From assembly GCA_963549415.1 (NCBI GenBank), contig CAUUYC010000004.1:682-64681 (forward strand): 64,000 nt of DNA, written 5' to 3'. Positions 1 through 64,000 of this stretch are shown here, piece by piece (positions within the stretch are counted from its first letter, which is position 1; every line of letters starts with the position of its first letter). This DNA is from an uncultured Candidatus Saccharimonas sp. GTDB lineage: Bacteria; Patescibacteriota; Saccharimonadia; Saccharimonadales; Saccharimonadaceae. The position numbers and the translations under genes were made by a program. A model generated the notes under the pieces. That model saw only the letters and a list, made by a program, of their open reading frames with translations, ran no database searches and was not told the origin of the DNA.

Positions 1-1
1 T

Positions 2-97
2 ATTACAAATTCAAATAAGACATCAGTAGAAGTTTATGAAATTAACGCCACAATTGAGAGATTTCTAGCGAAACTTCAGCCAGTTATTAATAACTAA
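2..97 (+). CDS. C-terminal fragment of an unidentified CDS entering from the left window edge
   Basis: Frame is open from position 2 for 31 sense codons to TAA at 95-97. Too short to identify. A hairpin plus T-run follows at 181-208. Confidence 0.3.
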   Translation: MTNSNKTSVEVYEINATIERFLAKLQPVINN

Positions 98-180
98 ACT
101 GAACAAGATTTTTACCAACATTTGATGGAAATCTTAAGGACGGAGGTTTGTTTTGTGAAGGAATGAGATGATTAGCTACA

Positions 181-209
181 CCTCAGCCAAATTGGTTGAG
201 GGATTTTTA
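181..209 (+). terminator. Rho-independent terminator candidate
   Basis: An 8-bp stem (181-188 pairs with 194-201, one G-U), a 5-nt loop, and a T-run at 204-208. Confidence 0.5.
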
Positions 210-482
210 TTTAAAAGAAAAAGACCGACAGGGTGAGTCTTGAAGATAAATGAGCTATTTTAGACGATAGCGATAATTTTTATCCTTCTTATAACCATCA
301 TGAACTCCAATTGAGCTATTCTTCAAAAGTTAAATCGATACATTCTATCAGATAGGTGCTAAAAACTGGGGCTAAATTAGATAGCAAAATCTCCTTATTA
401 GTCATAAAATTACTTAGTATATCTTCTGTTATATCTTGAACTTTACATAAAGTATCTTTCCAGATATTTTTTCGACAGTTTA

Positions 483-516
483 AATAAAAAAGTGAGTAGG
501 TGTATTCCACTCACTT
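483..516 (-). terminator. Rho-independent terminator downstream of leuS
   Basis: On the minus strand, AAGTGAGT...ACTCACTT forms an 8-bp stem (plus-strand 490-497 / 509-516), followed by TTTTTTATTT. Confidence 0.6.
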
Positions 517-569
517 AAACCCACAAACAAGACTGCTGGGTGACTGGTTGCATTAAGCCTCCATTTTAT

Positions 570-3011
570 TTATTTAACAACAAAGTTAATTAATTTATTC
601 GGAATGAAAATTTCTTTCAAAATCTCCTTGTCTTGCAAAAATTTCGAAACATTATCTTCTGCTTTTGCAGTAGCAAGAATCTCATCCTTTTCAGAGTTTG
701 CTGAGACTTTAATTTTCCCGCGGAGTTTTCCATTAACTTGAACAATAATTTGAATTTCATCAGTTTTCAAAAGCTCTTCATTCCATTTTGGCCAGCCAGA
801 TTTTTCGATAAAGTCATCATTTCCAAGTTGCCGCCAGAGTTCGCTCGAAATATGTGGTGCAAATGGAACGAGCATTTTAAGTAAATCTTCTAAAACAAAT
901 CGCCAATCGTTTGAAAAGCCTTCAAGCTTCATTTTATAAAGCTCATTTACGAATTCCATCAAAGCCGCCACGGCCGTATTCAAACTTTCGCGGTGAAAAT
1001 CTTCAGTAACTTTCTTGATGGTTTTATGCTGGATTTTTTGGACTTCAGCAAAATTTGAAAGATTTTCAGCAGATTTTTCAGATTCAATAAACTCCTGAAC
1101 CAAAACCCAAACACGATTCAGAAAACGATAAACTCCAGCTATACCTCGTGAATCCCAAGAAGCATCAACTTCATATGGAGCAATAAACATTTCATAAGTT
1201 CGAAGTGAATCTGCACCATATCCTTGGTCGATGACTTCAAGCGGATCAATAGTATTCCCCTTTGATTTACTCATTTTCGAACCATCCTCCGCATTGATAT
1301 ATCCGTGATAAAGGAGTTTTTTAACTGGTTCAGCAAAATTAGTTAGTCCCAAATCTCTAAAAACATGAGTCCAAAAACGAATATACAGTAAATGCGCAAC
1401 CGCGTGGTCGCCACCAACATAATAATCAATCGGCGCCCAGTAATTTACAAGCTCAGGATCCCAAGCTTGCTTAGAATTTCGAGGGTCAGCATATCGCAAA
1501 AGATACCAGCTTGAGCATGCATAACCATCCATCGTATCGGTTTCACGAGTCATTTTCTCGCCATTAATTTCAACTGTAATGAATTCTTTACTCTTAGCAA
1601 GGGCCGACTTTCCAGAATCATCAGGCTTAAAATCACTCAAAGTCGGAAGCATCACAGGCAATTGATCCTCGGGGATTAAATGCTCTTTCCCATCTTTGTC
1701 ATAAGCAATAGGAATCGGACATCCCCAATAACGCTGCCGAGAAATTAACCAATCTCGCATTTTATATGTAGTTTTCGAGCGACCAAATCCAGATTCTTCA
1801 AGCCAGCCTAAAATCTGTTCGCGAACATCCTCTGATTTTTGACCGTTAAATTCACCAGAGTTAACCATAATTCCTTCTCCATGATAGCAAGAATCATCGT
1901 CCACCATATCCTCAGGCTTCTCAACAACTTTTATAATATCCAAACCAAATTTTTTAGCAAATTCAAAATCTCGCTCATCATGCGCGGGAACCGCCATAAC
2001 AGCCCCTTCACCATAGCCTCCAAGCACGTAATCACTCACCCAAATCGGGATTTTCTTACCGTTTACCGGATTTATTGCATAGCTTCCAGTGAAAATTCCC
2101 GTCTTTTCTTTATTTTCTTGGCGCTCAATTTCAGATTTTTTAAGCGATTTTTTCTTATATTCATCAATCTTTTCTCTAGTTAAATCGGTAGAGAGTTTTT
2201 CGAGTAATTCATGTTCTGGCGCAATAGTTAAAAATGTCACACCGAAAATTGTATCTGGTCGAGTTGTAAAAACTTTAATTTTTTCGCCTTTAGCTTCGCC
2301 ATCGGCAATCTTGAATTCCACCTCAGCACCTTCAGATTTACCGATCCAGTTTCGCTGCATTGTTTTGATTTTTTCAGGCCAATCAAGATTATCTATATCA
2401 GCCAAAAGTTCATCAGCATATGCAGTAATTTTAAAGAACCACTGGGTCATTTGCTTTTTTGAAACTTCTTCACCACAGCGCCAGCATCGGCCATTTTCAA
2501 CTTGTTCATTTGCGAGAACTGTTTTGTCATTATCACACCACCACTGATAGCTCTCTTTTCGATAAGCTAGACCTTTTTTGTAGAGCTCACGAAAAATCCA
2601 CTGTGTCCACTTATAATATTCTGGGTTTGACGTATTAATTTCTCGCGACCAATCGATTGAAATTCCAAGCCGTTTAAATTGTTTTTTAAAATTTGCAATA
2701 TTTGTTTTTGTAGCTTCCTGTGGAGAGATTCCAGTTTTAATTGCATAATTTTCTGCTGGCAAGCCAAAAGTATCCCAACCAATTGGGTTTAAAACATTTT
2801 TACCCTGCTGGCGATAAAAACGAGCGATTGAATCAACAATAGTGTAGCTCCTTGCATGCCCAGTGTGAAGCCCTGCCCCACTTGGATACGGAAACATTCC
2901 CGAAATATACATTTTCTGTTTCGAAGAATCCGCTTCAACCTCATAAAGCTTTGATTCATCCCATTTTTTTTGCCACTTTTCTTCAATTTCAATCGGATTA
3001 TATCTTTTCAT
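570..3011 (-). CDS. leuS: Leucyl-tRNA synthetase
   Basis: 813-aa ORF with class I HIGH-type motif (HTGH) and KMSKS. Length and CP1-insert architecture match bacterial LeuRS. Confidence 0.97.
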   Translation of the reverse strand: MKRYNPIEIEEKWQKKWDESKLYEVEADSSKQKMYISGMFPYPSGAGLHTGHARSYTIVDSIARFYRQQGKNVLNPIGWDTFGLPAENYAIKTGISPQEATKTNIANFKKQFKRLGISIDWSREINTSNPEYYKWTQWIFRELYKKGLAYRKESYQWWCDNDKTVLANEQVENGRCWRCGEEVSKKQMTQWFFKITAYADELLADIDNLDWPEKIKTMQRNWIGKSEGAEVEFKIADGEAKGEKIKVFTTRPDTIFGVTFLTIAPEHELLEKLSTDLTREKIDEYKKKSLKKSEIERQENKEKTGIFTGSYAINPVNGKKIPIWVSDYVLGGYGEGAVMAVPAHDERDFEFAKKFGLDIIKVVEKPEDMVDDDSCYHGEGIMVNSGEFNGQKSEDVREQILGWLEESGFGRSKTTYKMRDWLISRQRYWGCPIPIAYDKDGKEHLIPEDQLPVMLPTLSDFKPDDSGKSALAKSKEFITVEINGEKMTRETDTMDGYACSSWYLLRYADPRNSKQAWDPELVNYWAPIDYYVGGDHAVAHLLYIRFWTHVFRDLGLTNFAEPVKKLLYHGYINAEDGSKMSKSKGNTIDPLEVIDQGYGADSLRTYEMFIAPYEVDASWDSRGIAGVYRFLNRVWVLVQEFIESEKSAENLSNFAEVQKIQHKTIKKVTEDFHRESLNTAVAALMEFVNELYKMKLEGFSNDWRFVLEDLLKMLVPFAPHISSELWRQLGNDDFIEKSGWPKWNEELLKTDEIQIIVQVNGKLRGKIKVSANSEKDEILATAKAEDNVSKFLQDKEILKEIFIPNKLINFVVK

Positions 3012-3021
3012 ACTATTTTAA

Positions 3022-3050
3022 ATTATACCAAAAATAGCATAAAAAATCAA
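3022..3050 (-). promoter_or_regulatory. Sigma70-type promoter for leuS (TTGATT-17-TGgTATAAT), -10 box 10 nt from the ATG
   Basis: Minus strand: -35 at 3045-3050, -10 at 3022-3027, ATG at 3009-3011. No SD lies between them. Confidence 0.55.
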
Positions 3051-3054
3051 AAAA

Positions 3055-6604
<3,550 letters not shown>

Positions 6605-6605
<1 letters not shown>

Positions 6606-7477: not shown

Positions 7478-7503
7478 ATTTAATAAAACCTCTAAAAAAT
7501 AAA

Positions 7504-14776: not shown

Positions 14777-15832
14777 TTAGTGTATATAGTTCGAAACACT
14801 ACTTGCTGGTACTGTTCGAGTTGTTACAACGTTCAGTTTTCCAGCATAATTCATATCTGAAACAGTGATTGTTCCATCAGAGTTCACAGACTCAACAATA
14901 GCAACGTGCCCGTAGCCCCAAATGTATGAGTTTGCGTAAGCATTCCACTGAGCAATTGCACCTACAGATGGATTTTGGTCAACTTTATACCCAGCAGCTC
15001 TAGCGCTAACTGCCCAAGTTGAAGCATTACCCCAGAAACTTCCGATATCTGGACGGCGATTATATGCATACCAAGTACAGTTTCCCCAGGCATAAGCATT
15101 TCCAGCTTTGACATTGTAATTAGAAGATAGAGATACTGGTGATACGTTCACAGAGCTAGAAGATTTTCGAGAATTTGAAGTTGTAGAAGTTGAGAAAACC
15201 TTAGATTTAGGATTATAATCTGGTCGCTCTTCTTCAGGCAAGATACCGCCAGGAATTACAATCTCAACGCCTTCTTTAGGCTCTTCACCATCTTTAAGCT
15301 TATTATAAGAAATCAATCTCTCCAAATTGGCTTGGTATTTTTCTGCTACAGATTTAATACTATCGCCAGATTTAAATCGATAGATAATTCCGTCTACAGG
15401 CAGAATTCTTAATTCCTTATTAGCCTCAACTTTATCACCTTTCAAGCCATTAACCCATTTAATAGTTTGAGCAGTGATGCCATATTTATCAGCAATCGCT
15501 TGAATAACCTCTTCTGAAGTTGTAGTGTATTTAATGATTTCACGTTTTTCAGAAGAAACCTCAAGAACTTTAGGCTTTTCAACAGAAGCGGCAGCTTGAG
15601 GTGAATCCTGAAGTATCGCAGTAGATGTTGAAAGACTCGCCACAGAAGACGCGATCGCTAAATCAGCAGACTCAGCAAGATTTGCAACAACACCAGACTC
15701 CGTAACCTTGTCTGCTACAGAATATTTCTCATTACTATTTTGAGTATTTTCAACAGATTTTGAATTAATTTGATTGTTTAACTCAGTCGATTTTTTAATA
15801 TCTGGCTGGCTACCACCAAATGTGGCAACCAT
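14777..15832 (-). CDS. Peptidoglycan hydrolase with two LysM repeats and a C-terminal CHAP domain
   Basis: LysM-like repeats (YTTTSEEVIQAIADKYGI..., YRFKSGDSIKSVAEKY...) and a CHAP signature NCTWYAY...GHVAIV. The true N-terminus is uncertain (see finding). Confidence 0.85.
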   Translation of the reverse strand: MVATFGGSQPDIKKSTELNNQINSKSVENTQNSNEKYSVADKVTESGVVANLAESADLAIASSVASLSTSTAILQDSPQAAASVEKPKVLEVSSEKREIIKYTTTSEEVIQAIADKYGITAQTIKWVNGLKGDKVEANKELRILPVDGIIYRFKSGDSIKSVAEKYQANLERLISYNKLKDGEEPKEGVEIVIPGGILPEEERPDYNPKSKVFSTSTTSNSRKSSSSVNVSPVSLSSNYNVKAGNAYAWGNCTWYAYNRRPDIGSFWGNASTWAVSARAAGYKVDQNPSVGAIAQWNAYANSYIWGYGHVAIVESVNSDGTITVSDMNYAGKLNVVTTRTVPASSVSNYIH

Positions 15833-16176
15833 AACAACAATAATAAAAATAGAAGAATAAACAACAGTTGATTTTAGACTTAATATATTAATTATCTTTG
15901 AAAAAGTAGAATTAGAAACTGTATTTTTTCTATTCTGTATGATTTCAATTTTAGGAGATTTAACTCCTCGTTTTTGACTACAAATAATCTTTCTCCCGCA
16001 AACACATTACTGTGATGCACTACCTTAATAATACCCTTTCTTTTCGAAAACTAGCATAATGTCGACCTTTTTAATTAATATTATAGAGTTAAACGAATGC
16101 TATAAAGTATTTTCTGGTAGGTGCCTTAATATAAAAATGCACAAAAACATCATTTTTATATTAATTTACATATAAA

Positions 16177-23040: not shown

Positions 23041-23073
23041 ATAAAACCACTCTTCAATTTTCGAAAAGTGGTT
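23041..23073 (-). terminator. Terminator downstream of the 427-aa gene, with a TTTTCGAAAA core
   Basis: AACCACT (23045-23051) pairs with AGTGGTT (23067-23073). A TTTTAT run follows on the minus strand. Confidence 0.5.
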
Positions 23074-23094
23074 CAATATCTTAACTACAAAATT

Positions 23095-24378
23095 CTATTG
23101 AAATGCCACCAGATATGCTACCAATCCAGCACCAGCACCAAGCATTAGAATTGCAATTATAGCTAGCACAACACCCCAGCCAGATTTCTTTTTATGCTTA
23201 ATAGGTGCAGAATATTCATCACTCGAAAGAATCGGTGCCGACATTTTTGCTCGCCGAAGCTCCTTTGTAATCGTTGCGGATTTTTGCTCATAATTAGAAA
23301 CTGGCTTTTTAAATTCGAAACTTTTAGCCTGATTTTGATTTGTACCTAATGGTCTTTTTTCAATTTGCGGATTTTGCACGAAAGGTGTTTTTGGCTTTTC
23401 AATTTCATCAACAGGCTGAATTATCACCTTTTCCGAAGCTTCATTTTGTTTTGATTTTTCTTCAACTCTTTCATCAACCTCGAAAATATCTATTCTTTTA
23501 TTATTTTCTTTGTTTTGCCCTGATTGATTTTTTTGCTCAGTCTTAACTTCAATCTTTGAAGCTTCGGTTTCAGCTTTGCCATCTATCTCTTTTTTGATTT
23601 TCTCAGAATTATCAAGCGTAATCGTATTGCTGCCAGTTTTTAGGCTTGAAATTTCTGGCATAACTTTTTCTGGCTCATTTTCGAGATTTAGATTTTCGAA
23701 ATTTGAACTATAAACTTTTCGCTCTGGAATTTCAACCGTATGTTCACCGTGAAAAACTCGGAGTTTATTGCTATCATCACCAATCCGATAGACACCAGCA
23801 TAAAACTCTGCCCGACTTGGCGTAGTAGTTTTTTGCTCCGCAATATTAATTTCATTTTTTTGAGATTGAACTTCAGTTTCTTTTTTTACTTGAGTTTTTT
23901 CATTTTTTGAAACAACTTTTTTTCGAATCGGTGAATTTTCAAGCTTTTTGATATTTCGAATCGGTTTTTCGCCACCATATGTTTCTAAAATTGGGCTTTC
24001 GAAAGCAATTTTCTCTTCTCTTACTAAAAGTGAAACACCAAAATTATCGTGGTGATGTTCTGGTGGAACGGGCGCACTAAAATCATCCAAAATTCGAACT
24101 CTTGGTTTTTTATAAACAGATTTTTTCTCATTCTTTGGTTTTTCAGCGACCTTTTCAATATTTCGAATTTGTGCTTTTTCGTTATTTTGATGCAATTGGT
24201 TTGCCGGCTGCGGAGCTTTTCGTGCAAAAACCATTTTTTGTTGCTCACGAGAATGCTCAATCTGGCTTTCGATTTTCGAAAAAACCTCATTATTTTTCTC
24301 TTTTGAATTTGGCACAACACCATTTTCAAGATAACTTCCAACCGCTTTATCTAATTCTTCAAAATCTATATCTCGCAT
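23095..24378 (-). CDS. K/E/Q-rich low-complexity protein with a C-terminal TM anchor, function unknown
   Basis: 427 aa with the C-terminal helix GWGVVLAIIAILMLGAGAGLVAYLVAF. An AAAGGAAAA SD lies 10 nt after the tpiA stop. Confidence 0.7.
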   Translation of the reverse strand: MRDIDFEELDKAVGSYLENGVVPNSKEKNNEVFSKIESQIEHSREQQKMVFARKAPQPANQLHQNNEKAQIRNIEKVAEKPKNEKKSVYKKPRVRILDDFSAPVPPEHHHDNFGVSLLVREEKIAFESPILETYGGEKPIRNIKKLENSPIRKKVVSKNEKTQVKKETEVQSQKNEINIAEQKTTTPSRAEFYAGVYRIGDDSNKLRVFHGEHTVEIPERKVYSSNFENLNLENEPEKVMPEISSLKTGSNTITLDNSEKIKKEIDGKAETEASKIEVKTEQKNQSGQNKENNKRIDIFEVDERVEEKSKQNEASEKVIIQPVDEIEKPKTPFVQNPQIEKRPLGTNQNQAKSFEFKKPVSNYEQKSATITKELRRAKMSAPILSSDEYSAPIKHKKKSGWGVVLAIIAILMLGAGAGLVAYLVAFQ

Positions 24379-29650: not shown

Positions 29651-30109
29651 ATGATCAACCTTCTTGTAAATTTTATACTGTTTATTTTGAGTATGTTGAA
29701 TGCTGTTACTTTTGGCATTCTTGATAATATTGGAGTTGTTTATTCAATTCTGATTTTCGCAACACTAATAGTTTTTGTAAAACTTGACTCAAAAATTCAA
29801 ATCTGCGATTTTTGGCGGAGTTCTGGATTTTTCATTAAAACTCTCATTTTCATTGGGGTTCTATTCAACACACTTCCCCAATGGTATTTCTGGGTTGCGG
29901 GTGTGATTTTGGTCGTTTTGGCATATTCCTTAACGACCAACCCTGATGATGATGAAGAAGATGAAGAGCCATCGATTTTGGCAAGAATTCATGATATCCT
30001 AATGGGAGAATATCGTAAAAGTGATTTTAAAGCGAAGGCTTCAAGTGCAATCCAAAAAACGAAAAATAAAGCAGGCGCAAAACCTAGAAAAAAATTGCCT
30101 CCAGTATGA
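29651..30109 (+). CDS. Small polytopic membrane protein with an acidic/basic C-terminal tail
   Basis: 152 aa with 3-4 hydrophobic helices followed by a DDDEEDEE stretch and a K-rich tail. Confidence 0.7.
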   Translation: MINLLVNFILFILSMLNAVTFGILDNIGVVYSILIFATLIVFVKLDSKIQICDFWRSSGFFIKTLIFIGVLFNTLPQWYFWVAGVILVVLAYSLTTNPDDDEEDEEPSILARIHDILMGEYRKSDFKAKASSAIQKTKNKAGAKPRKKLPPV

Positions 30110-30229: not shown

Positions 30230-30376
30230 TCTAGCAGTTGACATATCATAATCAGCAGATCTGTCAATGAAGCTTAACAAGAATTAGGTTATTATGAGGT
30301 ATTAATCGTGCCTCAATAGTCATTATTTATTTTGGCCAAAATAAATAAAATCTATATAGAAAGGATGGTACAAAAA

Positions 30377-31855
30377 ATGATGACTATAACTGAAAAAATT
30401 AATAAAGCTCTAGAACAATTAAAGAAACTGGCTTCCGCTAAGGAAGGCGGGGAGATGTGGTTCAAAGAAGTACGCAAAATTGCGGCTAGCAAACCTACAG
30501 ACGAAGAAAAGCTCACTTATCTTGAAGGTAAACTTCAAGAGCTGCGTAACATCTCTGAAGACGAAGCTGATAATGGAGATGCTAGTGCTAAAGCAAAGCT
30601 AAATATTTGGCTAAAAATAGCTATAGGTGCACTATTTCTATTTATAATTGGCACAATGGCTTGGTTTTTACTTTTAGCACCAAAAAGTGCCAGTGCTACA
30701 AATAGTAGCACAACTGCTGTTTCTTCTACAATCTCAAAATCTATAGATCTTCCAAAAGAAGATTTTAAGATTATGGACTATGTGGTTTCAGGAGGCGAGA
30801 TTAAGCCAAACCCTGAAATGAAGAACGATCAGTATAAGATAATCGCGAATAACTCTTCAAAGAACTCTCTTTCAAACGATAAAGATATTGCGCTAAAAGA
30901 GATGACCGACTATATGGCTCATAATGTCTCAGCTTTGAAAGAGAAAGCGATGACATTCAATATTGTCGATCAAAATTTCGATGAAAAGAAATGGCTAGAA
31001 AAGAGAAATGGCTCTCTTTATTACAATAAAGAAGGCCAAGATGTCTTCTATCAGGTGAAGGCGTTTCTAAATAGAAGTAAAATCACTTCGAAAGTTATGG
31101 AAGAAGGTAGTAACTATTATACTACCGGGCTAAACAAAGACAATAAAGTCGTTGTTAGTCAAAGTTCTCAAGATCTTTCTGGACAAAGATATTTGGAAGT
31201 TAAGAATCCTGAAGGTTCAACAGAAAAATATCGATACATTATTTTATGTTACTGCGGGAATACTGTTATGAAAAATAACAATATCCCAGGTGTACCGAAA
31301 GAAAAAATTAAAATTCCTAAACCGAAGAAGCCAAACGAGCCAGACAAACCTGGTAAGCCAAGTGAACCAGGAAAACCTGGTAAACCTGGCAAGCCAAGTG
31401 AACCTTCAAAACCAAGCGAGCCTTCAAAACCTTCAGTAAAGGATCCAAGTAAGGATCCAGCTAACCAAGGTAAAGCTTTGGTTGGCGGAGGCCAAAACGA
31501 TGGATCTTCAAATGGCGCAGAAACTTCTCAAGCAAAATTGCCTGAAAGTTACTCTGCTCCAGCTGCTCCAGTTGTTCCATCTACACCGGCACAAAGCTCA
31601 ACTGCACCATCACAAGATGCTCGTGTAAGTGAGCCATCTCAATGGTCTGGCGCTGGCAATGTCACAGATTCCAATGGCACTACAACAGTGACCAATGATG
31701 GGTCTGTGACCACCCCAGATGGTCGTCATTACGATGGTCTGGTGGGTCAATCTGCTCCTTCAGTTGAAGCTGGAGGTAACGGAGTTACAACTCCAAGCAG
31801 TTCGGCAAACTTTGCAGGCAATAGCTCAATGAGCGAACCCACGATTGATGACTAG
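30377..31855 (+). CDS. Membrane-anchored surface protein with a Pro-rich (K/E-P-G/S-K-P) tandem repeat and an S/T/A/G-rich tail
   Basis: The ORF is open from TTG 30332. The likely start is ATG 30377 (or 30365), after GAAAGGA. One TM lies near residue 100, and there is a KPGKPSEPGKPGKPGKPSEPSKPSEPSKPS block. Confidence 0.8.
   Translation: MMTITEKINKALEQLKKLASAKEGGEMWFKEVRKIAASKPTDEEKLTYLEGKLQELRNISEDEADNGDASAKAKLNIWLKIAIGALFLFIIGTMAWFLLLAPKSASATNSSTTAVSSTISKSIDLPKEDFKIMDYVVSGGEIKPNPEMKNDQYKIIANNSSKNSLSNDKDIALKEMTDYMAHNVSALKEKAMTFNIVDQNFDEKKWLEKRNGSLYYNKEGQDVFYQVKAFLNRSKITSKVMEEGSNYYTTGLNKDNKVVVSQSSQDLSGQRYLEVKNPEGSTEKYRYIILCYCGNTVMKNNNIPGVPKEKIKIPKPKKPNEPDKPGKPSEPGKPGKPGKPSEPSKPSEPSKPSVKDPSKDPANQGKALVGGGQNDGSSNGAETSQAKLPESYSAPAAPVVPSTPAQSSTAPSQDARVSEPSQWSGAGNVTDSNGTTTVTNDGSVTTPDGRHYDGLVGQSAPSVEAGGNGVTTPSSSANFAGNSSMSEPTIDD
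31318..31465 (+). repeat. In-frame short tandem repeats encoding the proline-rich spacer
   Basis: Reiterated AAACCTGG/AAGCCAAGTGAACC units are visible at 31350-31430. Confidence 0.7.
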
Positions 31856-37060: not shown

Positions 37061-37137
37061 TGGTACACCCGGCAGGATTTGAACCTACAACCGCCTGGTT
37101 CGAAGCCAGGTACTCTATCCAGTTGAGCTACGGGTGC
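37061..37137 (-). tRNA. tRNA-Arg(UCG), CCA encoded
   Basis: Hand-folded: acceptor GCACCCG/CGGGTGT (G1-U72 wobble), anticodon loop CTTCGAA, T-loop GGTTCAAATCC. Confidence 0.85.
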
Positions 37138-40246: not shown

Positions 40247-41776
40247 ATGAACGAAGAACAAGCCTATTTAGAAAAAATCGGGAAGCTTATTCAAGAATCC
40301 CGCCTGCACAAGAATTTAACTCAAGTTGAGCTTGCCGAAAAAATTGGCACCTCACAAAGTGCAATTAACCGAATTGAAAGTGGTAAGCAAAATATAACTA
40401 TTGAAATGCTTGCAAGAATTTCAGAAGAACTTTCGAGCGAAATTATATCTGTTAATTCAAATAAGAAAACCAATTTTCGTGTTCATGGCGGTCACGAACT
40501 TTCTGGTGAAATTGAAGTTAAAACCTCAAAAAATGCCGCCGTCGCCCTGCTTTGCGCTTCTCTTCTAAATAAAGGAAAAACGATTCTTCGCCGCGTTGCT
40601 AGAATCGAAGAGGTTAATCGAATTATTGAAGTCTTAAATTCGATTGGCGTTCGCACAAAATGGCTTAATGAAGATAACGACCTCGAAATTATACCTCCTA
40701 GAGAATTATCTTTCGAAAACATGAATGTTGAATCTGCCAAAAGAACACGCAGCATTCTAATGTTTCTTGGCCCACTTCTTCACCAATATTCAGACTTCGA
40801 AATACCTTTTTCTGGTGGGTGCAATTTAGGAACACGCACAGTTGAGCCACACCTTTCTGGATTAAAATATTTTGGTGCAAATGTTACAGCACAAACTGAT
40901 TTTTACAAAGTTTCAAATAAACCAAAAAAAGTCGAGAAGCCAATACTCTTAACCGAGCGCGGAGACACAACAACTGAAAATATAATTATGGCCGCAGCGC
41001 TTTCTGGTCAAGAAATTACAATTCGAAATGCTAGTCCAAACTATATGGTGCAAGATTTATGTTTCTTTCTTGAAGAGCTTGGCGTTAAAATTGAAGGAAT
41101 TGGAACAACAACCTTAAAAGTTCATGGATTAATAAAAATCGAAAAAGATGTTGAATATTATGTAAGCGAAGACCCTATTGAATCTTTGACTTTCGTGGCG
41201 GTTGCGCTGGTTACAAATTCTGAAATTACCATCAAACGTGCGCCAATCGAATTCAACGAACTTGAACTTGCAACCCTCGAACAAATGGGTGCAAATTTCG
41301 AAATCAGCTCCGAATATCTTTCGAAAAATAAAAAAACGCGCCTTGTGGATATTAAAGTTAAAAAATCAAAATTACATGCTGCGAAAGATAAAATTCACGC
41401 GCTACCATTTCCTGGTATAAATATGGACAATTTGCCTTTTCTTGGATTAATTGCAACTGTCGCGGAAGGTCGAACTTTGATTCATGACTGGAGCTACGAA
41501 AACCGTGCAATTTACTTTACTGAGCTTTCAAAATTAAACGCTAAAATTGAACTTGTTGATCCACATCGTGTTTATATTTCTGGCCCAACAAAATGGAAAC
41601 CTGCAGACATTATTGCGCCAAGTGCCCTTCGCCCAAGTGTTGTAGTTTTGATCGCAATGCTTGCCGCACCAGGAGTCTCAACCTTGCGAGATGTTTACAA
41701 TATCAATCGCGGCTATGAGGATTTTGCAGAAAGATTAAATTCACTTGGTGCAAAAATTGAAACTTTATTTTCATAA
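40247..41776 (+). CDS. murA: XRE-family HTH domain fused to UDP-N-acetylglucosamine 1-carboxyvinyltransferase
   Basis: Residues 1-65 form an HTH_3 domain (LTQVELAEKIGTSQSAINRIESGKQN). The rest is a MurA/EPSP fold with the catalytic-Cys loop GGCNLGTRTVEPH, FPGINMDN and YENR. Confidence 0.9.
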   Translation: MNEEQAYLEKIGKLIQESRLHKNLTQVELAEKIGTSQSAINRIESGKQNITIEMLARISEELSSEIISVNSNKKTNFRVHGGHELSGEIEVKTSKNAAVALLCASLLNKGKTILRRVARIEEVNRIIEVLNSIGVRTKWLNEDNDLEIIPPRELSFENMNVESAKRTRSILMFLGPLLHQYSDFEIPFSGGCNLGTRTVEPHLSGLKYFGANVTAQTDFYKVSNKPKKVEKPILLTERGDTTTENIIMAAALSGQEITIRNASPNYMVQDLCFFLEELGVKIEGIGTTTLKVHGLIKIEKDVEYYVSEDPIESLTFVAVALVTNSEITIKRAPIEFNELELATLEQMGANFEISSEYLSKNKKTRLVDIKVKKSKLHAAKDKIHALPFPGINMDNLPFLGLIATVAEGRTLIHDWSYENRAIYFTELSKLNAKIELVDPHRVYISGPTKWKPADIIAPSALRPSVVVLIAMLAAPGVSTLRDVYNINRGYEDFAERLNSLGAKIETLFS

Positions 41777-42324: not shown

Positions 42325-42402
42325 TGGGGCGAATGATGGGGTTCGAACCCACGGCCTCCGGTGCCACAAACCAGCGCTCTAACCAGCTGAGCTACATCCG
42401 CC
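42325..42402 (-). tRNA. tRNA-His(GUG) with genomically encoded G-1 and CCA
   Basis: Hand-folded: G-1 lies opposite C73, acceptor GCGGATG/CATTCGC, anticodon loop TTGTGGC. Confidence 0.88.
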
Positions 42403-43268: not shown

Positions 43269-43787
43269 ATGGAAATTATCTTTTACTCAATATCATTTAT
43301 TCTCGGCATAATTATTGCCGCTTTTCTTTTAACTATATTTTTTGGTGCACCGTATGTCCCTACACACAAATCAGATCTTTTCAGACTCTTCGAAACAATA
43401 AATCTTTCTAAAGAAGATATACTCGTAGATATCGGTTCTGGTGATGGAGTTGTTTTAAAAGTTGCAAATAATTTTAACGCAAAAGCTATTGGCTTCGAGA
43501 TTAACCCTTTTCTAGTTTTAATTTCAAAAATTAAACTTCGAAAACAGCAAAACTGCCAAATTTATCTTAAAAATTTTTGGAAAGCCTTCCCGATTTCAAA
43601 CATTACCGTATTCTATACTTTTGGCCACGCCGAGAGGATTGAAAAAATGCTAAAGCTTGCTCAAATTCAGACAAATTTTCAAAAAATACCTCTACTTTTT
43701 ATTAGTTATGGTTTCGAAATTAAAAATTTAAAACCTTTTAAAATATCAGGCGCACATTATATTTATAAAATTCAGCCAAAAAAATAA
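43269..43787 (+). CDS. Class I SAM-dependent methyltransferase with an N-terminal TM helix
   Basis: 172 aa with motif I VDIGSGDGVV. The ATG lies 14 nt after tRNA-Arg with no promoter or SD of its own, so it is probably co-transcribed. Confidence 0.7.
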   Translation: MEIIFYSISFILGIIIAAFLLTIFFGAPYVPTHKSDLFRLFETINLSKEDILVDIGSGDGVVLKVANNFNAKAIGFEINPFLVLISKIKLRKQQNCQIYLKNFWKAFPISNITVFYTFGHAERIEKMLKLAQIQTNFQKIPLLFISYGFEIKNLKPFKISGAHYIYKIQPKK

Positions 43788-57167: not shown

Positions 57168-57168
57168 T

Positions 57169-57849
57169 TTAGTTTTCCTCAAGACTTGGCTGTGGAATTT
57201 CTTGAAATTCAGGAATTAACATTACGATAAATTTTAAAGGTGTATTTGGACCAATAGTTTTCGAAGAATCTTCCTGATTCACCGAGCCCTGAGCACCATA
57301 AGCCTTATCCGCAGGAATAGATAATTCACGAATTCCGCCAACTTTCATTCCTTTTAGACCTTCACTCCAGCCCTCAATTAAGCCCCATTTTTTGCCCTCT
57401 TTACGAAAAACAACTGGCGATTTTAACCTACCATTTTCAAAGCTTCCGTCAAAAACTGTACCATCGGGTTTCCAGCCAATATAATAAGCCTGAAATTTCG
57501 TTGTTGAATCTGTAAATTCTTCACCATTGCCCTCTTTTAAATCTTTTTTCGTAAGTTCTTTTACGCTCGCAGCATTAAATGCAACTGGAGCTTTTTCATA
57601 TTCCTTAAAACTGTCGTAATATTTAGCCGAAAGTTCTTTCGCCTGCTCTTCAACCTTTTTTCTGTAATCTTGGTATTTTTTCAAAACTTGCGATTGCTTT
57701 TTTTGTGCTTCTGAATTACTCTCAGTTTGTAAGAATGAAGAAACATAAAGTGCAACAGTCGAAACAACCGTTAAAATTAAAATCACCCAAATTGAATATC
57801 TCTGCCAAGCTGGTGTACCAGTTTGTAATGAATTTTTCTTTGTTGCCAT
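57169..57849 (-). CDS. Membrane-anchored FKBP-type peptidyl-prolyl isomerase
   Basis: 226 aa with an N-terminal TM and an FKBP core (YYIGWKPDGTVFDGSF...GWSEGLKGMKVGG). Confidence 0.85.
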   Translation of the reverse strand: MATKKNSLQTGTPAWQRYSIWVILILTVVSTVALYVSSFLQTESNSEAQKKQSQVLKKYQDYRKKVEEQAKELSAKYYDSFKEYEKAPVAFNAASVKELTKKDLKEGNGEEFTDSTTKFQAYYIGWKPDGTVFDGSFENGRLKSPVVFRKEGKKWGLIEGWSEGLKGMKVGGIRELSIPADKAYGAQGSVNQEDSSKTIGPNTPLKFIVMLIPEFQEIPQPSLEEN

Positions 57850-57857
57850 CTTTTCTC

Positions 57858-60353: not shown

Positions 60354-60589
60354 TTATCACTCCTTCTTAATCCAAAAATATTTCTAATCATATCAGCAAT
60401 AGGTTTTTCGAAAATTTTACAATAAAAGCGTTGCCTTCCCCTACTAAAATTCTCACAACGAGTATCTTCTTCTGTAAAGGCTGAAACTCCGGCGAAAAAT
60501 ATAATGGCTGCTGCAAAAAATATCAAAGCAACCTTTAAACCAGCTAAAGATCGCTTTTTGTCTATTTCTCTCCATTCTTGCTCGGTCAT
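60350..60589 (-). CDS. 79-aa single-TM protein inserted between pheS and pheT
   Basis: Its ATG directly abuts the pheS TAA, and its TGA overlaps the pheT ATG (ATGA). The TM is LKVALIFFAAAIIFFAGVSAF. Confidence 0.6.
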   Translation of the reverse strand: MTEQEWREIDKKRSLAGLKVALIFFAAAIIFFAGVSAFTEEDTRCENFSRGRQRFYCKIFEKPIADMIRNIFGLRRSDK

Positions 60590-61609
60590 TTAAAATTCCT
60601 TTAGAAATTCCAATTTTGCGCTTTCGAAATAACGAATATCCGAAATTCCGTATTTGAGCATCACGAGACGCTCAATTCCTCCGCCCCAAGCAAAACCACG
60701 ATATTTTTTACTATCAATTCCGGCAGCTTCCAAAACATTTGGGTGAATCATTCCACAACCAAGCATTTCAAGCCATTCACCTTTTTTGCCACCAAGCGCC
60801 TCAGGTTTCTCAATCAAAAATTCAAGACTAGGTTCGGTAAATGGAAAATAGCCCGGCTGAGTGCGAATTTCTAGTTTTTGACCATAATATTCTTCGAAAA
60901 AGGCGTGAAGTGTGCCAAGCATTTGCGCTAAGTTTGCAGTTTTGCTCACAAAAACACCCTCGCATTGGTAAAAAGTATGTTCGTGTGTAGCATCTAAGTC
61001 TTCATTGCGAAAAACTCGCCCATAAGAAACATGCACAATTTGACCCTCCTCTTCAAGCTGTTTTTTACCATGTTTCAAAACACGGTTTTGCATTGTTGAG
61101 GTATGAGCTGGCGGAATAAAGTTTTCTTCAGTTCGAAAAGTATCGTAGCCATCTCGTGCTGGGTGGTTTTCAGGAAAATTTAACGCGCCAAACATATTCC
61201 AATCGTTATCGATCTGTCGAGATTCTACTGCTTCAAAGCCCATTCGTGTATAAATGTCCACCACTTTTTCAAGCTCTTTTTGGAGCGGATGCTTTGAACC
61301 ATTTTTTGCACTTAAAAGTTGTGGTTTTCGAGAAATTTTATCGCGAGAGCTTTCTGCAAAAGGTGCCGAAATATCAATCTCTTCAACTTCGGCATTTTCT
61401 TTTTCTTCAAGTTTTTTCGAAACTTCAGCCTGAATTTCATTTTTTAAATCATTCACTTTCGCGCCAAATTCACCTTTTTGCTCATTCGGCAGAGTTGGAA
61501 TAATTTTATAAAGTTCTTTAATTTTTGGCGATTTCAAAATATCGCTCGGGTTTTCGAGTGCTTGGAGTTCCGCCAAAAGTTCATTTCTAATCTGTTGAAT
61601 TTGTTCCAT
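60590..61609 (-). CDS. pheS: Phenylalanyl-tRNA synthetase alpha subunit
   Basis: 339 aa with class II motifs (FRNEDLDATHEHTFYQCEG, GFAWGGGIERL). Confidence 0.95.
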   Translation of the reverse strand: MEQIQQIRNELLAELQALENPSDILKSPKIKELYKIIPTLPNEQKGEFGAKVNDLKNEIQAEVSKKLEEKENAEVEEIDISAPFAESSRDKISRKPQLLSAKNGSKHPLQKELEKVVDIYTRMGFEAVESRQIDNDWNMFGALNFPENHPARDGYDTFRTEENFIPPAHTSTMQNRVLKHGKKQLEEEGQIVHVSYGRVFRNEDLDATHEHTFYQCEGVFVSKTANLAQMLGTLHAFFEEYYGQKLEIRTQPGYFPFTEPSLEFLIEKPEALGGKKGEWLEMLGCGMIHPNVLEAAGIDSKKYRGFAWGGGIERLVMLKYGISDIRYFESAKLEFLKEF

Positions 61610-61620
61610 AATTATCTTTA

Positions 61621-61649
61621 ATTATACCATAACAGTATCTTTTTGTCGA
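61621..61649 (-). promoter_or_regulatory. Promoter TCGACA-17-TGgTATAAT, -10 box 11 nt upstream of the pheS ATG
   Basis: Minus strand: -10 at 61621-61626 and -35 at 61644-61649. No SD. Confidence 0.55.
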
Positions 61650-61660
61650 TTTTTAAAAAA

Positions 61661-61927
61661 TTAAACTCGCTGTGATGCCACCCAAATATAAAGCCCAAGC
61701 GCAACCAAAACTGCCACAAAAACTAAAAGCCATATAAAAGCTAGCCCTGTGGTTTCTTTTGTCCCTTCAAGATACGCACTATCTTCAGGCTGAACGATTT
61801 CACCTTTGCTATTTGGAGTTTCGCCCCCCTCTTTGAGTGAGTTCTTAATCTGTTTTTCACGAAGTTCTGCTGCAATCTTTTCTTGCAATTCAGTTCGATT
61901 ATCATCTTGTTTTACATATAAAGCCAT
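61661..61927 (-). CDS. Small charged protein with a C-terminal TM anchor
   Basis: 88 aa with the C-terminal helix LAFIWLLVFVAVLVALGLYIWV. Confidence 0.55.
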   Translation of the reverse strand: MALYVKQDDNRTELQEKIAAELREKQIKNSLKEGGETPNSKGEIVQPEDSAYLEGTKETTGLAFIWLLVFVAVLVALGLYIWVASQRV

Positions 61928-61946
61928 AACTATATTGTATCAGATT

Positions 61947-61976
61947 TTGACATTTTCGAAAAGTTTATGATAAAAT
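61947..61976 (+). promoter_or_regulatory. Promoter TTGACA-18-TGaTAAAAT for the MIP channel gene, with TTTTCGAAAA in the spacer
   Basis: -35 at 61947-61952 and -10 at 61971-61976. An AAGGAGGGAAG SD precedes ATG 62006. Confidence 0.6.
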
Positions 61977-62005
61977 ATAAACATAAGTTAAAATAAGGAG
62001 GGAAG

Positions 62006-62842
62006 ATGGCAACAAAAAAAGCCAATTTAAAGAAATCTTCAAAAACTGCTCACAAAAAAGTAACTGAAGAAGTTTTGAAAGTTGAAAAAACGGTTAAAAC
62101 TATCGTTAAGAATGATAAGAAAACTGACACTATCTTTCTTGAAGAAATTTCAAAACCAAGTTTTATTTCAGCAGTAGCGCTTGAATTTATTGGAACATTC
62201 CTACTCGCGGCTGGTATTATTATTAGTCAAGGTCAACCAATCGGTGTAATGTTTATTCTTATGTCAATTGTTTTGATTGCTGGAGGAATTAGTGGAGCTC
62301 ACGTTAACCCATTAATTACAATCGGCGCTTGGGCAACTCGCAAGATTAACACAATTAAAGCTATTTTTTATATCATTGCTCAAGTTTTAGGTGCGATGGT
62401 TGCTTTTATGCTTTTGAATGCCTTTGTCGGCGCACAAGATACTCTACAATCATATGGTCAAAAGCCAACTCTATTCACTGCAAACCCGATCCCAAAGGAC
62501 AAGGAAATGCTAGCGCTTGCCGCTGAATTTATTGGTTCATTCATTTTTGCATTTTCTGTCGCAACTATAACTTCCAATAAAAAGAACGGAAATATGGCAA
62601 AAGCACTTGGCGTTGGCGGTGGTTTATACTTGGCGGTTTTAATTGCAGGATCTCTCACAACGTTAATCGGATCTTCAGCAATAATTAACCCAGCAGTAGC
62701 ATTCGCACTTCAAGCGTTTACTATAAAAGGACAGAACGTTCCTTATGCGATTGCAATTTATATCGGCACAGCATTAATTGGAGGAATCCTTGGCTTTGCA
62801 CTAAATCACTTAATCCAAAAGTCAACTGAAGAAGAAAAATAA
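62006..62842 (+). CDS. MIP-family channel (aquaporin/glycerol facilitator-like) with a basic N-terminal extension
   Basis: 278 aa with six TM helices. The first signature reads SGAHVNPL (NPL rather than NPA), and the second reads NPAVAF. Confidence 0.88.
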   Translation: MATKKANLKKSSKTAHKKVTEEVLKVEKTVKTIVKNDKKTDTIFLEEISKPSFISAVALEFIGTFLLAAGIIISQGQPIGVMFILMSIVLIAGGISGAHVNPLITIGAWATRKINTIKAIFYIIAQVLGAMVAFMLLNAFVGAQDTLQSYGQKPTLFTANPIPKDKEMLALAAEFIGSFIFAFSVATITSNKKNGNMAKALGVGGGLYLAVLIAGSLTTLIGSSAIINPAVAFALQAFTIKGQNVPYAIAIYIGTALIGGILGFALNHLIQKSTEEEK

Positions 62843-62854
62843 TTGCTAACAATA

Positions 62855-62884
62855 AAAAGAGCAGCTTTCGAAAGTTGCTCTTTT
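62855..62884. terminator. Bidirectional terminator centred on TTTCGAAA
   Basis: AAAAGAGCAGCTTTCGAAAGTTGCTCTTTT forms a stem of about 14 bp including one G-U, between the convergent MIP and rmuC genes. Confidence 0.75.
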
Positions 62885-62893
62885 AAATTTATT

Positions 62894-63994
62894 TTATTCA
62901 CGAGGTTTATCAAGTATTTGTGGCTCAACTCCAGTTTTATTATCTTCGCCCGAAATTTTTACCACATCTTTATCAATTTTACCAAGCTCTTTATGAGCAT
63001 TATTAAAATGATTAACAGTTGTGCCAAGTGATTTTCCAAGACGTTGCATTAGATCTTCATATTTCGAAATATGCACGCCCAGCTGGCCAACTCGCTTTTG
63101 AATTTCCCTACTCTGCTCTTCAATTTTTAACGATTTCAAACCTTGTAAAACAGTTTGAAGATACGCCATAAAACTAGTTGGACTAACCACGATCACACGC
63201 TTATCACGAAACGCATATTCGATCAAATCTCGCTCTGAACCCTGAGAACCAACAACTCCAGTTAAAGCATCATAATACAAACTCTCGCTAGGAATAAACA
63301 TAAAAGCAAAATCCATAGTGTTTTCATTCGGGCGAATATATTTCGAAGTTTCATCAATCCGCATTTTTAAATCATCGCGAACTCTTTTCGCTAGAATCTT
63401 TCGCTCTTCACCTTCAGATTCAACCATCCGATTATAATTTTCGAGGCTAAATTTTGAATCTACTGGCAAAATCTTATTTTTATCAAGAAAAATAGCTGCA
63501 TCGACAATTTCACCATTTTTAAATTTATATTGAATTTCAAAGGCATTCGGTGGCAAAACGTTTTCAAGAACTTGCTCAAGATAAAACTCTCCTAGAACAC
63601 CACGCTGTTTTGGATTTTGCAAGGCATTTTGAAGTGTTTTTAGCTCGTCCGCGACATTCACAACGCGGTTATTTGTTTCATCGAGCTTTGTAAGCCTTTT
63701 CGAAACCTCTTCAACAATTTTCGAACTCTCAGAAATCTGTTTGGCCATTGAATTTTGAATTTGAAAATTATTTCTCTCAAGCTTTTCTGAAACTTTCTCA
63801 TTAAAATTGGTTAGGTTAGCATCAATATTTTCGCGCATTCTGTTTAAGCTTTTATTCAGCTCAATTACATCCATTTTTAGCAAATTTACACTTTGGTCTT
63901 CATTTTTCGAAGCTACAATTTTTGAAATTCGAAAAGATTGAAAAATTAAAACCGATGCTAAAATTACAATAATGATTATTAGTCCAATTTCCAT
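62894..63994 (-). CDS. rmuC: DNA recombination protein RmuC
   Basis: 366 aa with an N-terminal TM, a coiled-coil and an RmuC nuclease-like C-terminal region (FAFMFIPSESLY). Confidence 0.88.
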   Translation of the reverse strand: MEIGLIIIIVILASVLIFQSFRISKIVASKNEDQSVNLLKMDVIELNKSLNRMRENIDANLTNFNEKVSEKLERNNFQIQNSMAKQISESSKIVEEVSKRLTKLDETNNRVVNVADELKTLQNALQNPKQRGVLGEFYLEQVLENVLPPNAFEIQYKFKNGEIVDAAIFLDKNKILPVDSKFSLENYNRMVESEGEERKILAKRVRDDLKMRIDETSKYIRPNENTMDFAFMFIPSESLYYDALTGVVGSQGSERDLIEYAFRDKRVIVVSPTSFMAYLQTVLQGLKSLKIEEQSREIQKRVGQLGVHISKYEDLMQRLGKSLGTTVNHFNNAHKELGKIDKDVVKISGEDNKTGVEPQILDKPRE

Positions 63995-64000
63995 TTACTC

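Follow-up and report, generated by a model that had tools for sequence, protein, structure and literature searches.

The window and its host

The palindromic hexamer TTCGAA was analysed in a 64-kb stretch of DNA from a member of the Saccharibacteria, where it recurs in genes and between them about three times per kb. The whole of this stretch is referred to as the window. Its G+C content is 35.3%, its GC skew is negative throughout, and 48 open reading frames (ORFs) were taken as genes and used as the coding set. Housekeeping genes include those for LeuRS, LigA, HisRS, Obg, AlaRS, TIM, PGK, BipA, FolD, MurB, SHMT, a ClpB-like protein, RNase Y, Pol I, PheST and RmuC, and eight tRNAs are present. 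A lysM-TM7 RNA (Rfam RF03005, 86 bits) at 15993-16122 on the minus strand, upstream of a LysM/CHAP peptidoglycan hydrolase gene (14777-15832), places the window in Saccharibacteria. The PGK protein shares 59% identity with its Candidatus Nanogingivalis counterpart, and identical or near-identical proteins were found on human-metagenome contigs, for example BNJV01000132.1 (GCA_015473185.1), a 666-kb contig from a PromethION saliva metagenome; the RmuC protein recurs unchanged on at least 23 contigs, whereas a look-up of LeuRS returned no exact match. The DNA therefore comes from a Saccharibacterium of the human mouth whose genome measures about 0.67 Mb.

Frequency of TTCGAA and null models

TTCGAA occurs 188 times in the window (2.94 per kb, coding and intergenic DNA together), in agreement with the original prediction, in which 150-200 copies, or about 3 per kb, had been counted by hand and only a few tens were expected. 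The extended palindromes TTTCGAAA and TTTTCGAAAA occur 84 and 18 times; TTTCGAAA is 38-fold over expectation. The sites had been described as mostly of these two forms, which is too strong, as 45% are TTTCGAAA and 10% the 10-mer. Expressed per Mb, the densities are 2940 for TTCGAA and 1310 for TTTCGAAA.

The expected number depends on the order of the model, being 21.3 from mononucleotide composition (8.8-fold excess), 42.2 from an order-1 Markov model (4.5-fold), 74.4 from order 2 (2.5-fold) and 160.9 from order 4 (1.17-fold). The original prediction had drawn its line at about 2-fold over a codon-preserving or order-4 expectation, and taken literally the order-4 figure falls short of it. This null is circular and uninformative for TTCGAA because it takes the frequencies of TTCGA and TCGAA as given, although 77% and 76% of these pentamers sit within the hexamer itself, and it was set aside after the contexts of TCGA had been partitioned. 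Outside the hexamer these words are at background: TTCGA not followed by A was observed 55 times (44.7 expected), TCGAA not preceded by T 61 times (44.4 expected) and TCGA with neither flank 72 times (93 expected).

Against the codon-preserving null the excess stands. Coding DNA holds 169 copies, compared with 59.6 +/- 6.2 after within-gene shuffling of synonymous codons (2.8-fold, z about 17) and 38.7 after codon permutation. All three reading frames are enriched, as had been claimed, with 46, 49 and 74 copies where the shuffle gives 18, 19 and 22. Under the same null TTCGAA ranks first among the 4096 hexamers (z 14.4), with only its own extensions directly below it, and TTCGAA and TTTCGAAA are top-ranked among all 6-, 7- and 8-mers. 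A comparable excess of unrelated hexamers, which had been named as a reason to doubt the signal, was not seen: the next unrelated family, GAGCTTG/AGCTTG, reaches z 8-9. This family, with GCTTGG, was considered as a second DNA signal and rejected; it exceeds the synonymous shuffle about 3-fold and on the sense strand only, which makes it a codon-context or codon-pair effect. A few G+C-rich words with 17-48 copies each stand at 5- to 6.6-fold by mononucleotide ratio, and their excess is gone under the codon-aware null.

Intergenic DNA, after exclusion of tRNAs, contains 17 copies in 6040 nt (2.81 per kb), an enrichment of 7- to 9-fold; 500 dinucleotide shuffles of the same DNA gave 2.4 +/- 1.5 copies, with a maximum of 8. 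A similar intergenic density had been predicted from 15 listed examples, all of which were recovered to within 9 nt. Sixteen of the 17 copies extend to an 8-bp palindrome (15 TTTCGAAA and one GTTCGAAC). The excess is thus real both in genes and between them, and the earlier argument for a force at the DNA level rather than codon usage holds, given that the enrichment survives the synonymous shuffle in every frame and is equal in intergenic DNA.

The hexamer as the unit of enrichment

Among the 376 occurrences of TCGA in the window, T at -3 and A at +3 tend to be found together (odds ratio 4.0). The whole hexamer is the enriched unit and its half-sites are at background. At position 4 on either side, T is found at 69% and A at 65% of the sites, compared with 43% and 39% outside the motif, which bears out the T-rich 5' and A-rich 3' flanks reported earlier. 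The two outer preferences are independent of each other (odds ratio 0.96), so that separate preferences for T before and A after the hexamer produce the excess of TTTCGAAA. Words one mismatch away are at expectation under the synonymous shuffle (TTTGAA 0.92-fold, TTCAAA 1.37-fold). A symmetric, cooperative dependence on six base pairs is the pattern expected of a dimeric or type-II-like protein rather than of a single-base mutational context, and it points to the former.

Protein-free explanations were weighed against these results, namely a context-dependent mutational bias or a compositional artefact of codon usage, dinucleotide bias or junctions of T-runs and A-runs. The order-4 model does reproduce the count, runs of T and A are common in an AT-rich genome, and the probability of T before TTC is 0.43 even outside the motif. 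That model is circular here, however; the excess over shuffled codons holds in all frames (z about 17), and intergenic DNA is enriched as well. TTTAAA is only 1.2-fold over expectation in the window, and the other palindromes of the form W2-CG-W2 are not enriched (AACGTT 15 copies, ATCGAT 15, TACGTA 0). The cooperativity over six positions (odds ratio 4.0) also speaks against such an effect, as does the lack of the excess in sister lineages that match the clade in GC content and codon style (see below). With the shuffles of synonymous codons and of intergenic dinucleotides, the codon permutation and the sister lineages all against it, an artefact is largely refuted, and we regard it as very unlikely.

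The sites could also be copies of a dispersed miniature mobile element, a REP-like repeat or a tRNA-derived sequence, since two of them lie in tRNA T-loops and a few in hairpins. No information content was found past +/-4 around the 188 sites, so they are not copies of a longer element; the perfect palindrome has a half-length of at most 5 in 180 of the 188, and about 90% of the copies are inside conserved housekeeping genes, in all frames. Repeats of the REP or MITE (miniature inverted-repeat transposable element) type span tens of bp and are mainly intergenic, a description that the sites do not fit, and the probability of this explanation is practically negligible. An orientation bias of the Chi or KOPS type does not arise, as TTCGAA is its own reverse complement and no orientation is possible.

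Phylogenetic extent

The PGK neighbourhood was taken from 80 species-level genomes and from graded relatives, and the observed/expected ratio (O/E) of TTCGAA was calculated from base composition:

Window: O/E 8.8
L001, L002, L090, L091 and L092 (same species; L090 and L091 reach 10 kb past the window): O/E 8-9.4
L004 (CAURNE01; PGK 86% identical): O/E 10.1
L084 (PGK 73% identical; 4.0 sites per kb): O/E 12.5
L088: O/E 5.9
L252: O/E 4.9
L085: O/E 1.0
L086: O/E 1.7
L253: O/E 0.7
L087 (Nanogingivalis): O/E 0.4
L089: O/E 0.9
About 45 other Saccharibacteria loci: O/E 0-2.6

The comparison with relatives that the original prediction had called for therefore gave a sharp result, with enrichment (4.9- to 12.5-fold) confined to one clade of five species-level lineages. 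In neighbour-joining trees of 7-8 concatenated proteins this clade has the form ((window, L004), L084) plus (L088, L252). Lineages without enrichment branch elsewhere; the sisters L085, L086, L253 and L087, at 0.4- to 1.7-fold, share its GC content and codon style. The simplest reading is one origin of the enrichment at the base of the clade. No other palindromic hexamer was as enriched in the 77 loci of at least 10 kb, the best being TGGCCA (5.3-fold, Bifidobacterium) and GCCGGC (about 4-fold in some Saccharibacteria). The latter is 3.4- to 4.2-fold enriched (about 1 per kb) in six Saccharibacteria loci of about 52% GC (L014, L019, L022, L025, L016 and L042), where it may reflect Ala-Gly codon context.

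A scan of metagenome contigs for the pattern returned mostly short, ascertainment-biased contigs and one probable fragment of the clade. This piece (L154), from the 171-kb contig ERZ773031.3-NODE-3, carries housekeeping genes (HIT, RlmH and an ABC ATPase), has 4.2 TTCGAA per kb and correlates with the window in tetranucleotide usage (r 0.87). It probably stems from a different part of the genome in the same clade, which would agree with enrichment throughout the genome. The corresponding scan of viral contigs gave mostly tandem repeats and chance matches, with two truly TTCGAA-dense phage contigs in which the copies are dispersed rather than tandem: L118 (IMGVR_UViG_3300044959_000237, a 111-kb contig) has 8.0 per kb (O/E 24) and L129 (IMGVR_UViG_3300020567_000331) 6.3 per kb (O/E 20). 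The two resemble each other in tetranucleotide usage (r 0.84) and are unlike the window (r 0.1-0.3), which indicates that hyper-abundance of TTCGAA arose more than once.

TTCGAA is also the recognition sequence of BstBI/AsuII, and targets of restriction enzymes are as a rule avoided. Here it is 9-fold enriched, whereas other palindromes are under-represented in the same window (CATG 0.32-fold, ACGT 0.43-fold, GATC 0.53-fold and GTAC 0.59-fold), so that ordinary palindrome avoidance coexists with the TTCGAA excess in the same DNA and the contrast drawn in the original prediction was apt. Among longer words, ACATGT is absent (9.8 expected) and ATGCAT occurs 6 times (26 expected). Other Saccharibacteria loci avoid TTCGAA completely: L011, L012, L017, L018, L025 and L027 (11-21 kb each) contain none where 3-6 per locus are expected. 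As this looks like restriction avoidance, TTCGAA-specific enzymes or restriction-modification systems probably circulate in the phylum outside the enriched clade.

Gain, loss and retention of sites

The dynamics of the sites were followed in codon alignments of orthologues, with other hexamers in the same frames as the control. Retention of sites was as follows:

Window to L004: TTCGAA 53%, control 34% (p 0.005)
Window to L084: TTCGAA 60%, control 18% (p 4e-8)
Window to L084, identical amino acids: TTCGAA 90%, control 32% (p 1e-7)
Window to L085: TTCGAA 9%, control 12% (not significant)
Window to L087: TTCGAA 0%, control 11% (no excess; nominal deficit, p 0.008)

Scored as present (1) or absent (0) in the window, L004 and L084, the site patterns were 111 (11 sites), 110 (6), 101 (10), 011 (4), 100 (8), 010 (19) and 001 (33). 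Lineage-specific sites make up 60 of the 91, with gains independent in each lineage. The outgroups have unrelated sequence at many gained sites, and many gains need amino-acid changes, often being non-synonymous.

Where a site differs within the species, the other sequence is TTTGAA or TTCAAA in 36 of 43 cases; between the window and L004 it is so in 14 of 25. TTTGAA in frame 0 and TTCAAA in frame 2 are also the synonymous routes. When the differences between the window and L001 were polarised with L004, 6 gains and 4 losses were found in this small sample, where AT-biased neutrality predicts about 22% gains (p 0.01). Sites thus turn over fast through the central CG, yet are kept and recreated above control words. 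The overall picture is one of an active genome-wide bias toward the hexamer, balanced by CpG decay, and not of conservation of particular sites.

A bias of this kind could come from methylation-linked mismatch repair, either after Elhai's model for HIP1, a highly iterated palindrome of cyanobacteria, or by very-short-patch (VSP) repair as with Dcm/Vsr of E. coli, which shapes CCWGG and related words and where a methyltransferase target is over-represented through T:G to C:G repair. A TTCGAA-specific cytosine methyltransferase with such a repair activity would protect existing sites and convert TTTGAA and TTCAAA into new ones, which fits the dominance of these two words among the differences and the gains above the AT-biased neutral expectation, although synonymous third positions alone would also give CG transitions. 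Restriction to one clade would suit the acquisition of a methyltransferase and repair gene pair, and the process would also work on phage DNA replicating in such a cell. What speaks against it is the size and shape of the effect. In E. coli, Dcm/Vsr changes word frequencies by well under 2-fold and depletes the one-off words, whereas the enrichment here is 9- to 38-fold, TTTGAA and TTCAAA show no such depletion, and the word pattern of VSP repair is absent. Many gains need at least two substitutions or amino-acid changes, and the roughly 100 kb of clade DNA covered contained neither a DNA methyltransferase gene nor vsr. We consider biased repair unlikely as the main cause, even though the abundance of highly iterated palindromes tracks cognate methyltransferases and a methyltransferase-linked repair model was put forward for them (Elhai 2015, PMC4390886).

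Effect on codons and proteins

The pressure toward TTCGAA visibly shifts the choice of synonymous codons. Phenylalanine before GAA is encoded by TTC in 46 of 94 cases (49%), compared with 16% where the next codon is not Glu; arginine in the context NTT_Arg_ANN by CGA in 49 of 66 (74%), compared with 32% overall; and serine in the context NNT_Ser_AAN by TCG in 74 of 177 (42%), compared with 15.5% overall. Over eight orthologues, Phe-Glu dipeptides number 12-18 in enriched and 8-10 in non-enriched genomes, and Phe and Arg are also somewhat commoner in the enriched genomes than in their non-enriched relatives. Placement at weakly conserved protein positions, as for uptake signal sequences (USS), was looked for and rejected, as no difference was seen (0.32-0.44, background 0.38-0.39).

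Positions, spacing and local contexts

Start positions of all TTCGAA copies in the window:

1-10 kb: 643, 1199, 1276, 2920, 3334, 3473, 3585, 3639, 4014, 4188, 4632, 4960, 4979, 5474, 6240, 6353, 6494, 6927, 7552, 7858, 8511, 8907, 9058, 9240, 9515, 9793
10-20 kb: 10067, 10535, 10742, 11746, 11861, 12035, 12276, 12505, 12675, 13735, 13824, 14255, 14629, 14790, 16043, 16548, 16807, 16834, 17231, 17637, 17913, 18023, 18374, 18894, 19319, 19820
20-30 kb: 20177, 20718, 21026, 21254, 22355, 22453, 23000, 23060, 23314, 23695, 23922, 23955, 23998, 24093, 24162, 24275, 24586, 24607, 24805, 25385, 26066, 26833, 26864, 26989, 27278, 27394, 28410, 28741, 28948, 29540
30-40 kb: 30151, 31087, 31886, 31904, 32365, 32580, 32773, 33238, 33381, 33483, 33570, 33783, 33893, 34526, 34699, 34720, 34753, 34942, 35134, 35578, 36234, 36669, 36743, 36986, 37099, 37503, 37648, 37834, 38115, 38168, 38672, 39177, 39396, 39483
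40-50 kb: 40125, 40712, 40796, 41022, 41297, 41320, 41863, 42342, 42601, 42766, 43389, 43537, 43713, 44006, 44681, 44751, 45082, 45266, 45587, 45638, 45846, 46064, 46631, 46651, 47237, 48008, 48092, 48719, 49772
50-64 kb: 50317, 50981, 51218, 51305, 51836, 53245, 54451, 54595, 54854, 54862, 55066, 55108, 55170, 55334, 56018, 56197, 56355, 56547, 56916, 57075, 57260, 57942, 58135, 58159, 58539, 58984, 59023, 59409, 59420, 60286, 60407, 60623, 60893, 61132, 61416, 61955, 62867, 63063, 63342, 63699, 63720, 63906, 63928
Intergenic, outside tRNAs (17 of the above): 10067, 16043, 20718, 23000, 23060, 26833, 26864, 29540, 30151, 31886, 31904, 40125, 47237, 56197, 60407, 61955, 62867

The mean spacing is 338 nt, with a coefficient of variation (CV) of 0.85 compared with 0.99 +/- 0.07 under random placement. 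The number of copies per gene, over all 48 genes, is consistent with a Poisson distribution (chi2 37.8, df 47, p 0.83). Sites in particular contexts, and genes at either end of the density range, are:

61947-61976, plus strand: promoter-like site, TTGACA-18-TAAAAT with TG (consensus match only), upstream of a MIP-channel gene; TTCGAA at 61955-61960 in the spacer
62855-62884, plus strand: terminator-like hairpin AAAAGAGCAGCTTTCGAAAGTTGCTCTTTT; TTCGAA at 62867-62872 at the apex
23044-23074, minus strand: terminator-like hairpin; TTCGAA at 23060-23065 at or near the apex
37099-37104, minus strand: TTCGAA in the T-loop of tRNA-Arg(tcg), a trivial copy outside the phenomenon
42342-42347: TTCGAA in the T-loop of tRNA-His, the second trivial tRNA copy
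16043-16048, minus strand: TTCGAA within the lysM-TM7 RNA (RF03005, 15993-16122)
34404-35255, minus strand: folD, the densest gene (6 copies, 7.0 per kb), within Poisson scatter
23095-24378: hypothetical gene, the second densest (8 copies, 6.2 per kb), within Poisson scatter
30332-31855, plus strand: Pro-rich hypervariable surface gene, 1 copy

The site in a promoter spacer was confirmed as a consensus match. The claim that the motif centres several terminator hairpins was overstated; two clear cases were found, and several further sites adjoin terminator T-runs.

The single copy in the Pro-rich surface gene had been taken as a possible mark of non-native DNA. This idea is not supported: 0.9 copies are expected there (0.32 from the shuffle, times the genome-wide factor of 2.85), the orthologues of this gene and its hypervariable neighbour, pooled over four genomes, contain 6 copies where 6.0 are expected, and all 48 genes together fit a Poisson distribution. 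The two adjacent plus-strand genes (29651-30109 and 30332-31855, the second encoding a Pro/Ser-rich surface-type protein) are hypervariable between strains, with 58-67% amino-acid identity to L001 where the flanking genes have 97-100%, which suggests allele replacement or diversifying selection.

The spacing bears on a third explanation, in which TTCGAA is the selected binding site of a chromosome-structuring or nucleoid-associated protein and its density and spacing are what selection maintains. Sites are spread slightly more evenly than at random and are not over-dispersed among genes, a palindrome suits a dimeric binder, and retention exceeds that of control words. On the other side, with 60 of 91 scored sites lineage-specific, most positions are not conserved, and no protein emerged as a candidate. 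Sites with a known structuring role (matS, parS and NBS, for example) are, moreover, far fewer than the roughly 2000 copies that a 0.67-Mb genome of this kind would hold. We judge this reading rather improbable; for HIP1, selection for chromosome structure has been argued, together with a periodicity of 10-90 kb (Xu, Lawrence & Durand 2018, PMC5861425).

Candidate genes

All 48 ORFs of the window were scanned against Pfam and NCBIfam, and the gene tables of neighbouring loci were read. The clade DNA covered in this way (the window, L001, L002, L004, L084, L088, L090, L252 and L154) comes to about 100 kb, only about 10-15% of the whole genome (about 0.67 Mb). The 10 kb past the end of the window contain housekeeping genes only, with no methyltransferase, restriction, Vsr or competence gene. 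Two proteins encoded in the window were noted in addition:

40247-41776, plus strand: N-terminal HTH_3 (XRE-type) domain fused to an EPSP-synthase/MurA-type enolpyruvyl transferase domain
43269-43787, plus strand: 172-amino-acid protein resembling S-adenosylmethionine-dependent methyltransferases, among tRNA genes; weak matches are to protein-lysine and rRNA methyltransferases

The second, the only methyltransferase-like protein that the search brought up, is too small and lacks a DNA-methyltransferase signature, and from its sequence it is unlikely to be a DNA methyltransferase.

Comparison with known systems

The phenomenon most like the present one is HIP1 of cyanobacteria, reportedly described by Robinson in 1995. 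Both are short perfect palindromes at about 1-3 copies per kb, found in coding DNA in all frames and in non-coding DNA, and codon usage explains neither. In both a palindromic extension of the 6-bp core is preferred, as with CGATCG within GCGATCGC; both have a patchy, lineage-specific phylogeny, with relatives that lack the motif or, in cyanobacteria, have another palindrome; and neither belongs to a longer repeat or a mobile element. Sites of HIP1 are also retained above control words, which for TTCGAA was seen at species-to-genus depth and not within the species, and parallel re-creation could inflate those figures. The differences are that TTCGAA is AT-rich with a central CpG, in a genome of 35% GC, and that its host is an obligate epibiont of the Saccharibacteria, in the Candidate Phyla Radiation (CPR), with a genome of about 0.67 Mb. 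HIP1 (GCGATCGC) has a density of 300-2700 per Mb and an O/E of 55-228 (Elhai 2015, PMC4390886), so that TTTCGAAA with an O/E of 38 is at the low end. Methylated HIP1 raises natural transformation of Synechococcus more than 100-fold overall (Kamoku and Nielsen 2024, bioRxiv 10.1101/2024.09.10.611283), and HIP1 abundance correlates phylogenetically with DNA-transfer machinery (Rodriguez-Cruz et al. 2026, bioRxiv 10.64898/2026.06.24.733823). The mechanism of HIP1 is itself unsettled, and the resemblance is therefore phenomenological only.

Uptake signals offer a second comparison. DNA uptake sequences (DUS) and USS are non-palindromic, at least 9-12 bp long and more than 100-fold enriched, and DUS are concentrated in intergenic inverted pairs. 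Like TTCGAA, the DUS of Neisseria and the USS of Pasteurellaceae occur about once per kb in genes and intergenic DNA, are spread by molecular drive and sometimes lie in terminator hairpins; TTCGAA differs in being a palindrome of 6-8 bp, with equal coding and intergenic density. Another analogy is the CtsM system of Campylobacter jejuni, which would share with TTCGAA a palindromic AT-rich hexamer, an orphan-methyltransferase mark serving as a self-DNA tag, and a small AT-rich genome. C. jejuni takes up DNA only if its RAATTY sites, which are palindromic hexamers, are methylated (PMC10046745), uptake depending on CtsM and RA(m6A)TTY methylation (PMC10046745, PMC8468864). Saccharibacteria are naturally competent via ComEC (PMC10633639). 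Full-text searches of the literature turned up no description of TTCGAA as over-represented in any bacterium, nor of an uptake sequence or iterated palindrome in Saccharibacteria.

Interpretation

The causes proposed in the original prediction (an uptake signal, an orphan methylase, a nucleoid protein or a repair bias) are the same as those debated for HIP1, and the present results narrow them without deciding between them. It is quite likely that a heritable factor, specific to the lineage and recognising all six base pairs of the palindrome, both produces and maintains the excess. We infer a protein because the dependence on the six bases is symmetric, the trait is inherited in a single clade, and coding and non-coding DNA are affected alike. 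Such a factor would act on double-stranded DNA, in the manner of a DNA methyltransferase or another dimeric or type-II-like protein, and would bias genome-wide which alleles become fixed.

Taken as a whole, our preferred account falls short of an even chance. It holds that TTCGAA, preferably as TTTCGAAA, is a highly iterated palindrome of one human-oral Saccharibacteria clade, produced by a lineage-specific, protein-mediated fixation bias that is probably linked to methylation and natural transformation. The enrichment, its independence of coding, the hexamer as its unit, the clade boundary, the turnover and the extra retention are observed, whereas the protein, the methylation and the tie to transformation are inferred. 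New sites would arise from TTTGAA, TTCAAA and further neighbouring words, in part through substitutions that alter the protein, while sites already present would outlast comparable words. During transformation through ComEC and a type IV pilus, site-bearing fragments may be preferentially taken up or integrated, and molecular drive would then carry alleles with the site through the population, up to the point where the cost to proteins offsets it. That the site, probably methylated, marks self DNA during transformation or the subsequent recombination is the mechanism we favour, although it is less likely than not. More specific still, and doubtful, is the idea that methylated TTCGAA/TTTCGAAA is a self-recognition signal for transformation, which would make it the first uptake or recombination signal in the CPR and a convergent counterpart of HIP1.

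Transformation drive was ranked first, weakly, because of ComEC competence, the C. jejuni precedent, allele replacement in the species and the lack of one-off-word depletion. Several observations weigh against it. Competence was demonstrated in other Saccharibacteria and not in this clade, and the roughly 100 kb of clade DNA searched here yielded no gene for a DNA methyltransferase, a restriction enzyme, Vsr or competence. A palindrome of 6-8 bp is far shorter than known uptake sequences and would discriminate weakly against foreign DNA unless methylation helps; DUS concentrate in intergenic terminators, whereas the coding and non-coding densities of TTCGAA are equal. Within the species (94-96% DNA identity) sites are conserved like average hexamers (65-94%, compared with 72-82%), and the deeper conservation could be in part parallel re-creation by the same drive, which would inflate the retention figures. 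The phage contigs L118 and L129 are even denser in TTCGAA than the clade, for which a host uptake signal is no obvious explanation.

What is new is that an iterated palindrome, a kind of element known from cyanobacteria, occurs in a CPR lineage and is AT-rich with a central CpG. To our knowledge, highly iterated palindromes have been a puzzle for 30 years and have been described almost only in cyanobacteria. A second, independent system, with a different sequence, a tiny, presumably competent, host-dependent bacterium and a sharp phylogenetic on/off boundary, would turn the puzzle into a tractable comparison, that is, a search for a gene that the five enriched lineages have and their sisters lack. 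TTCGAA is also a simple, strong signature for binning DNA of this clade, and perhaps of its phages, in metagenomes. Should the cause be a repair bias only, the clade would still be a clear case of a sequence-specific process that reshapes synonymous codons and even amino-acid content. If the site aids uptake or recombination, adding TTCGAA to donor DNA could ease the genetics of oral Saccharibacteria; and if it is a methylated self tag, iterated palindromes would be a general means of methylation-based self-DNA marking in competent bacteria.

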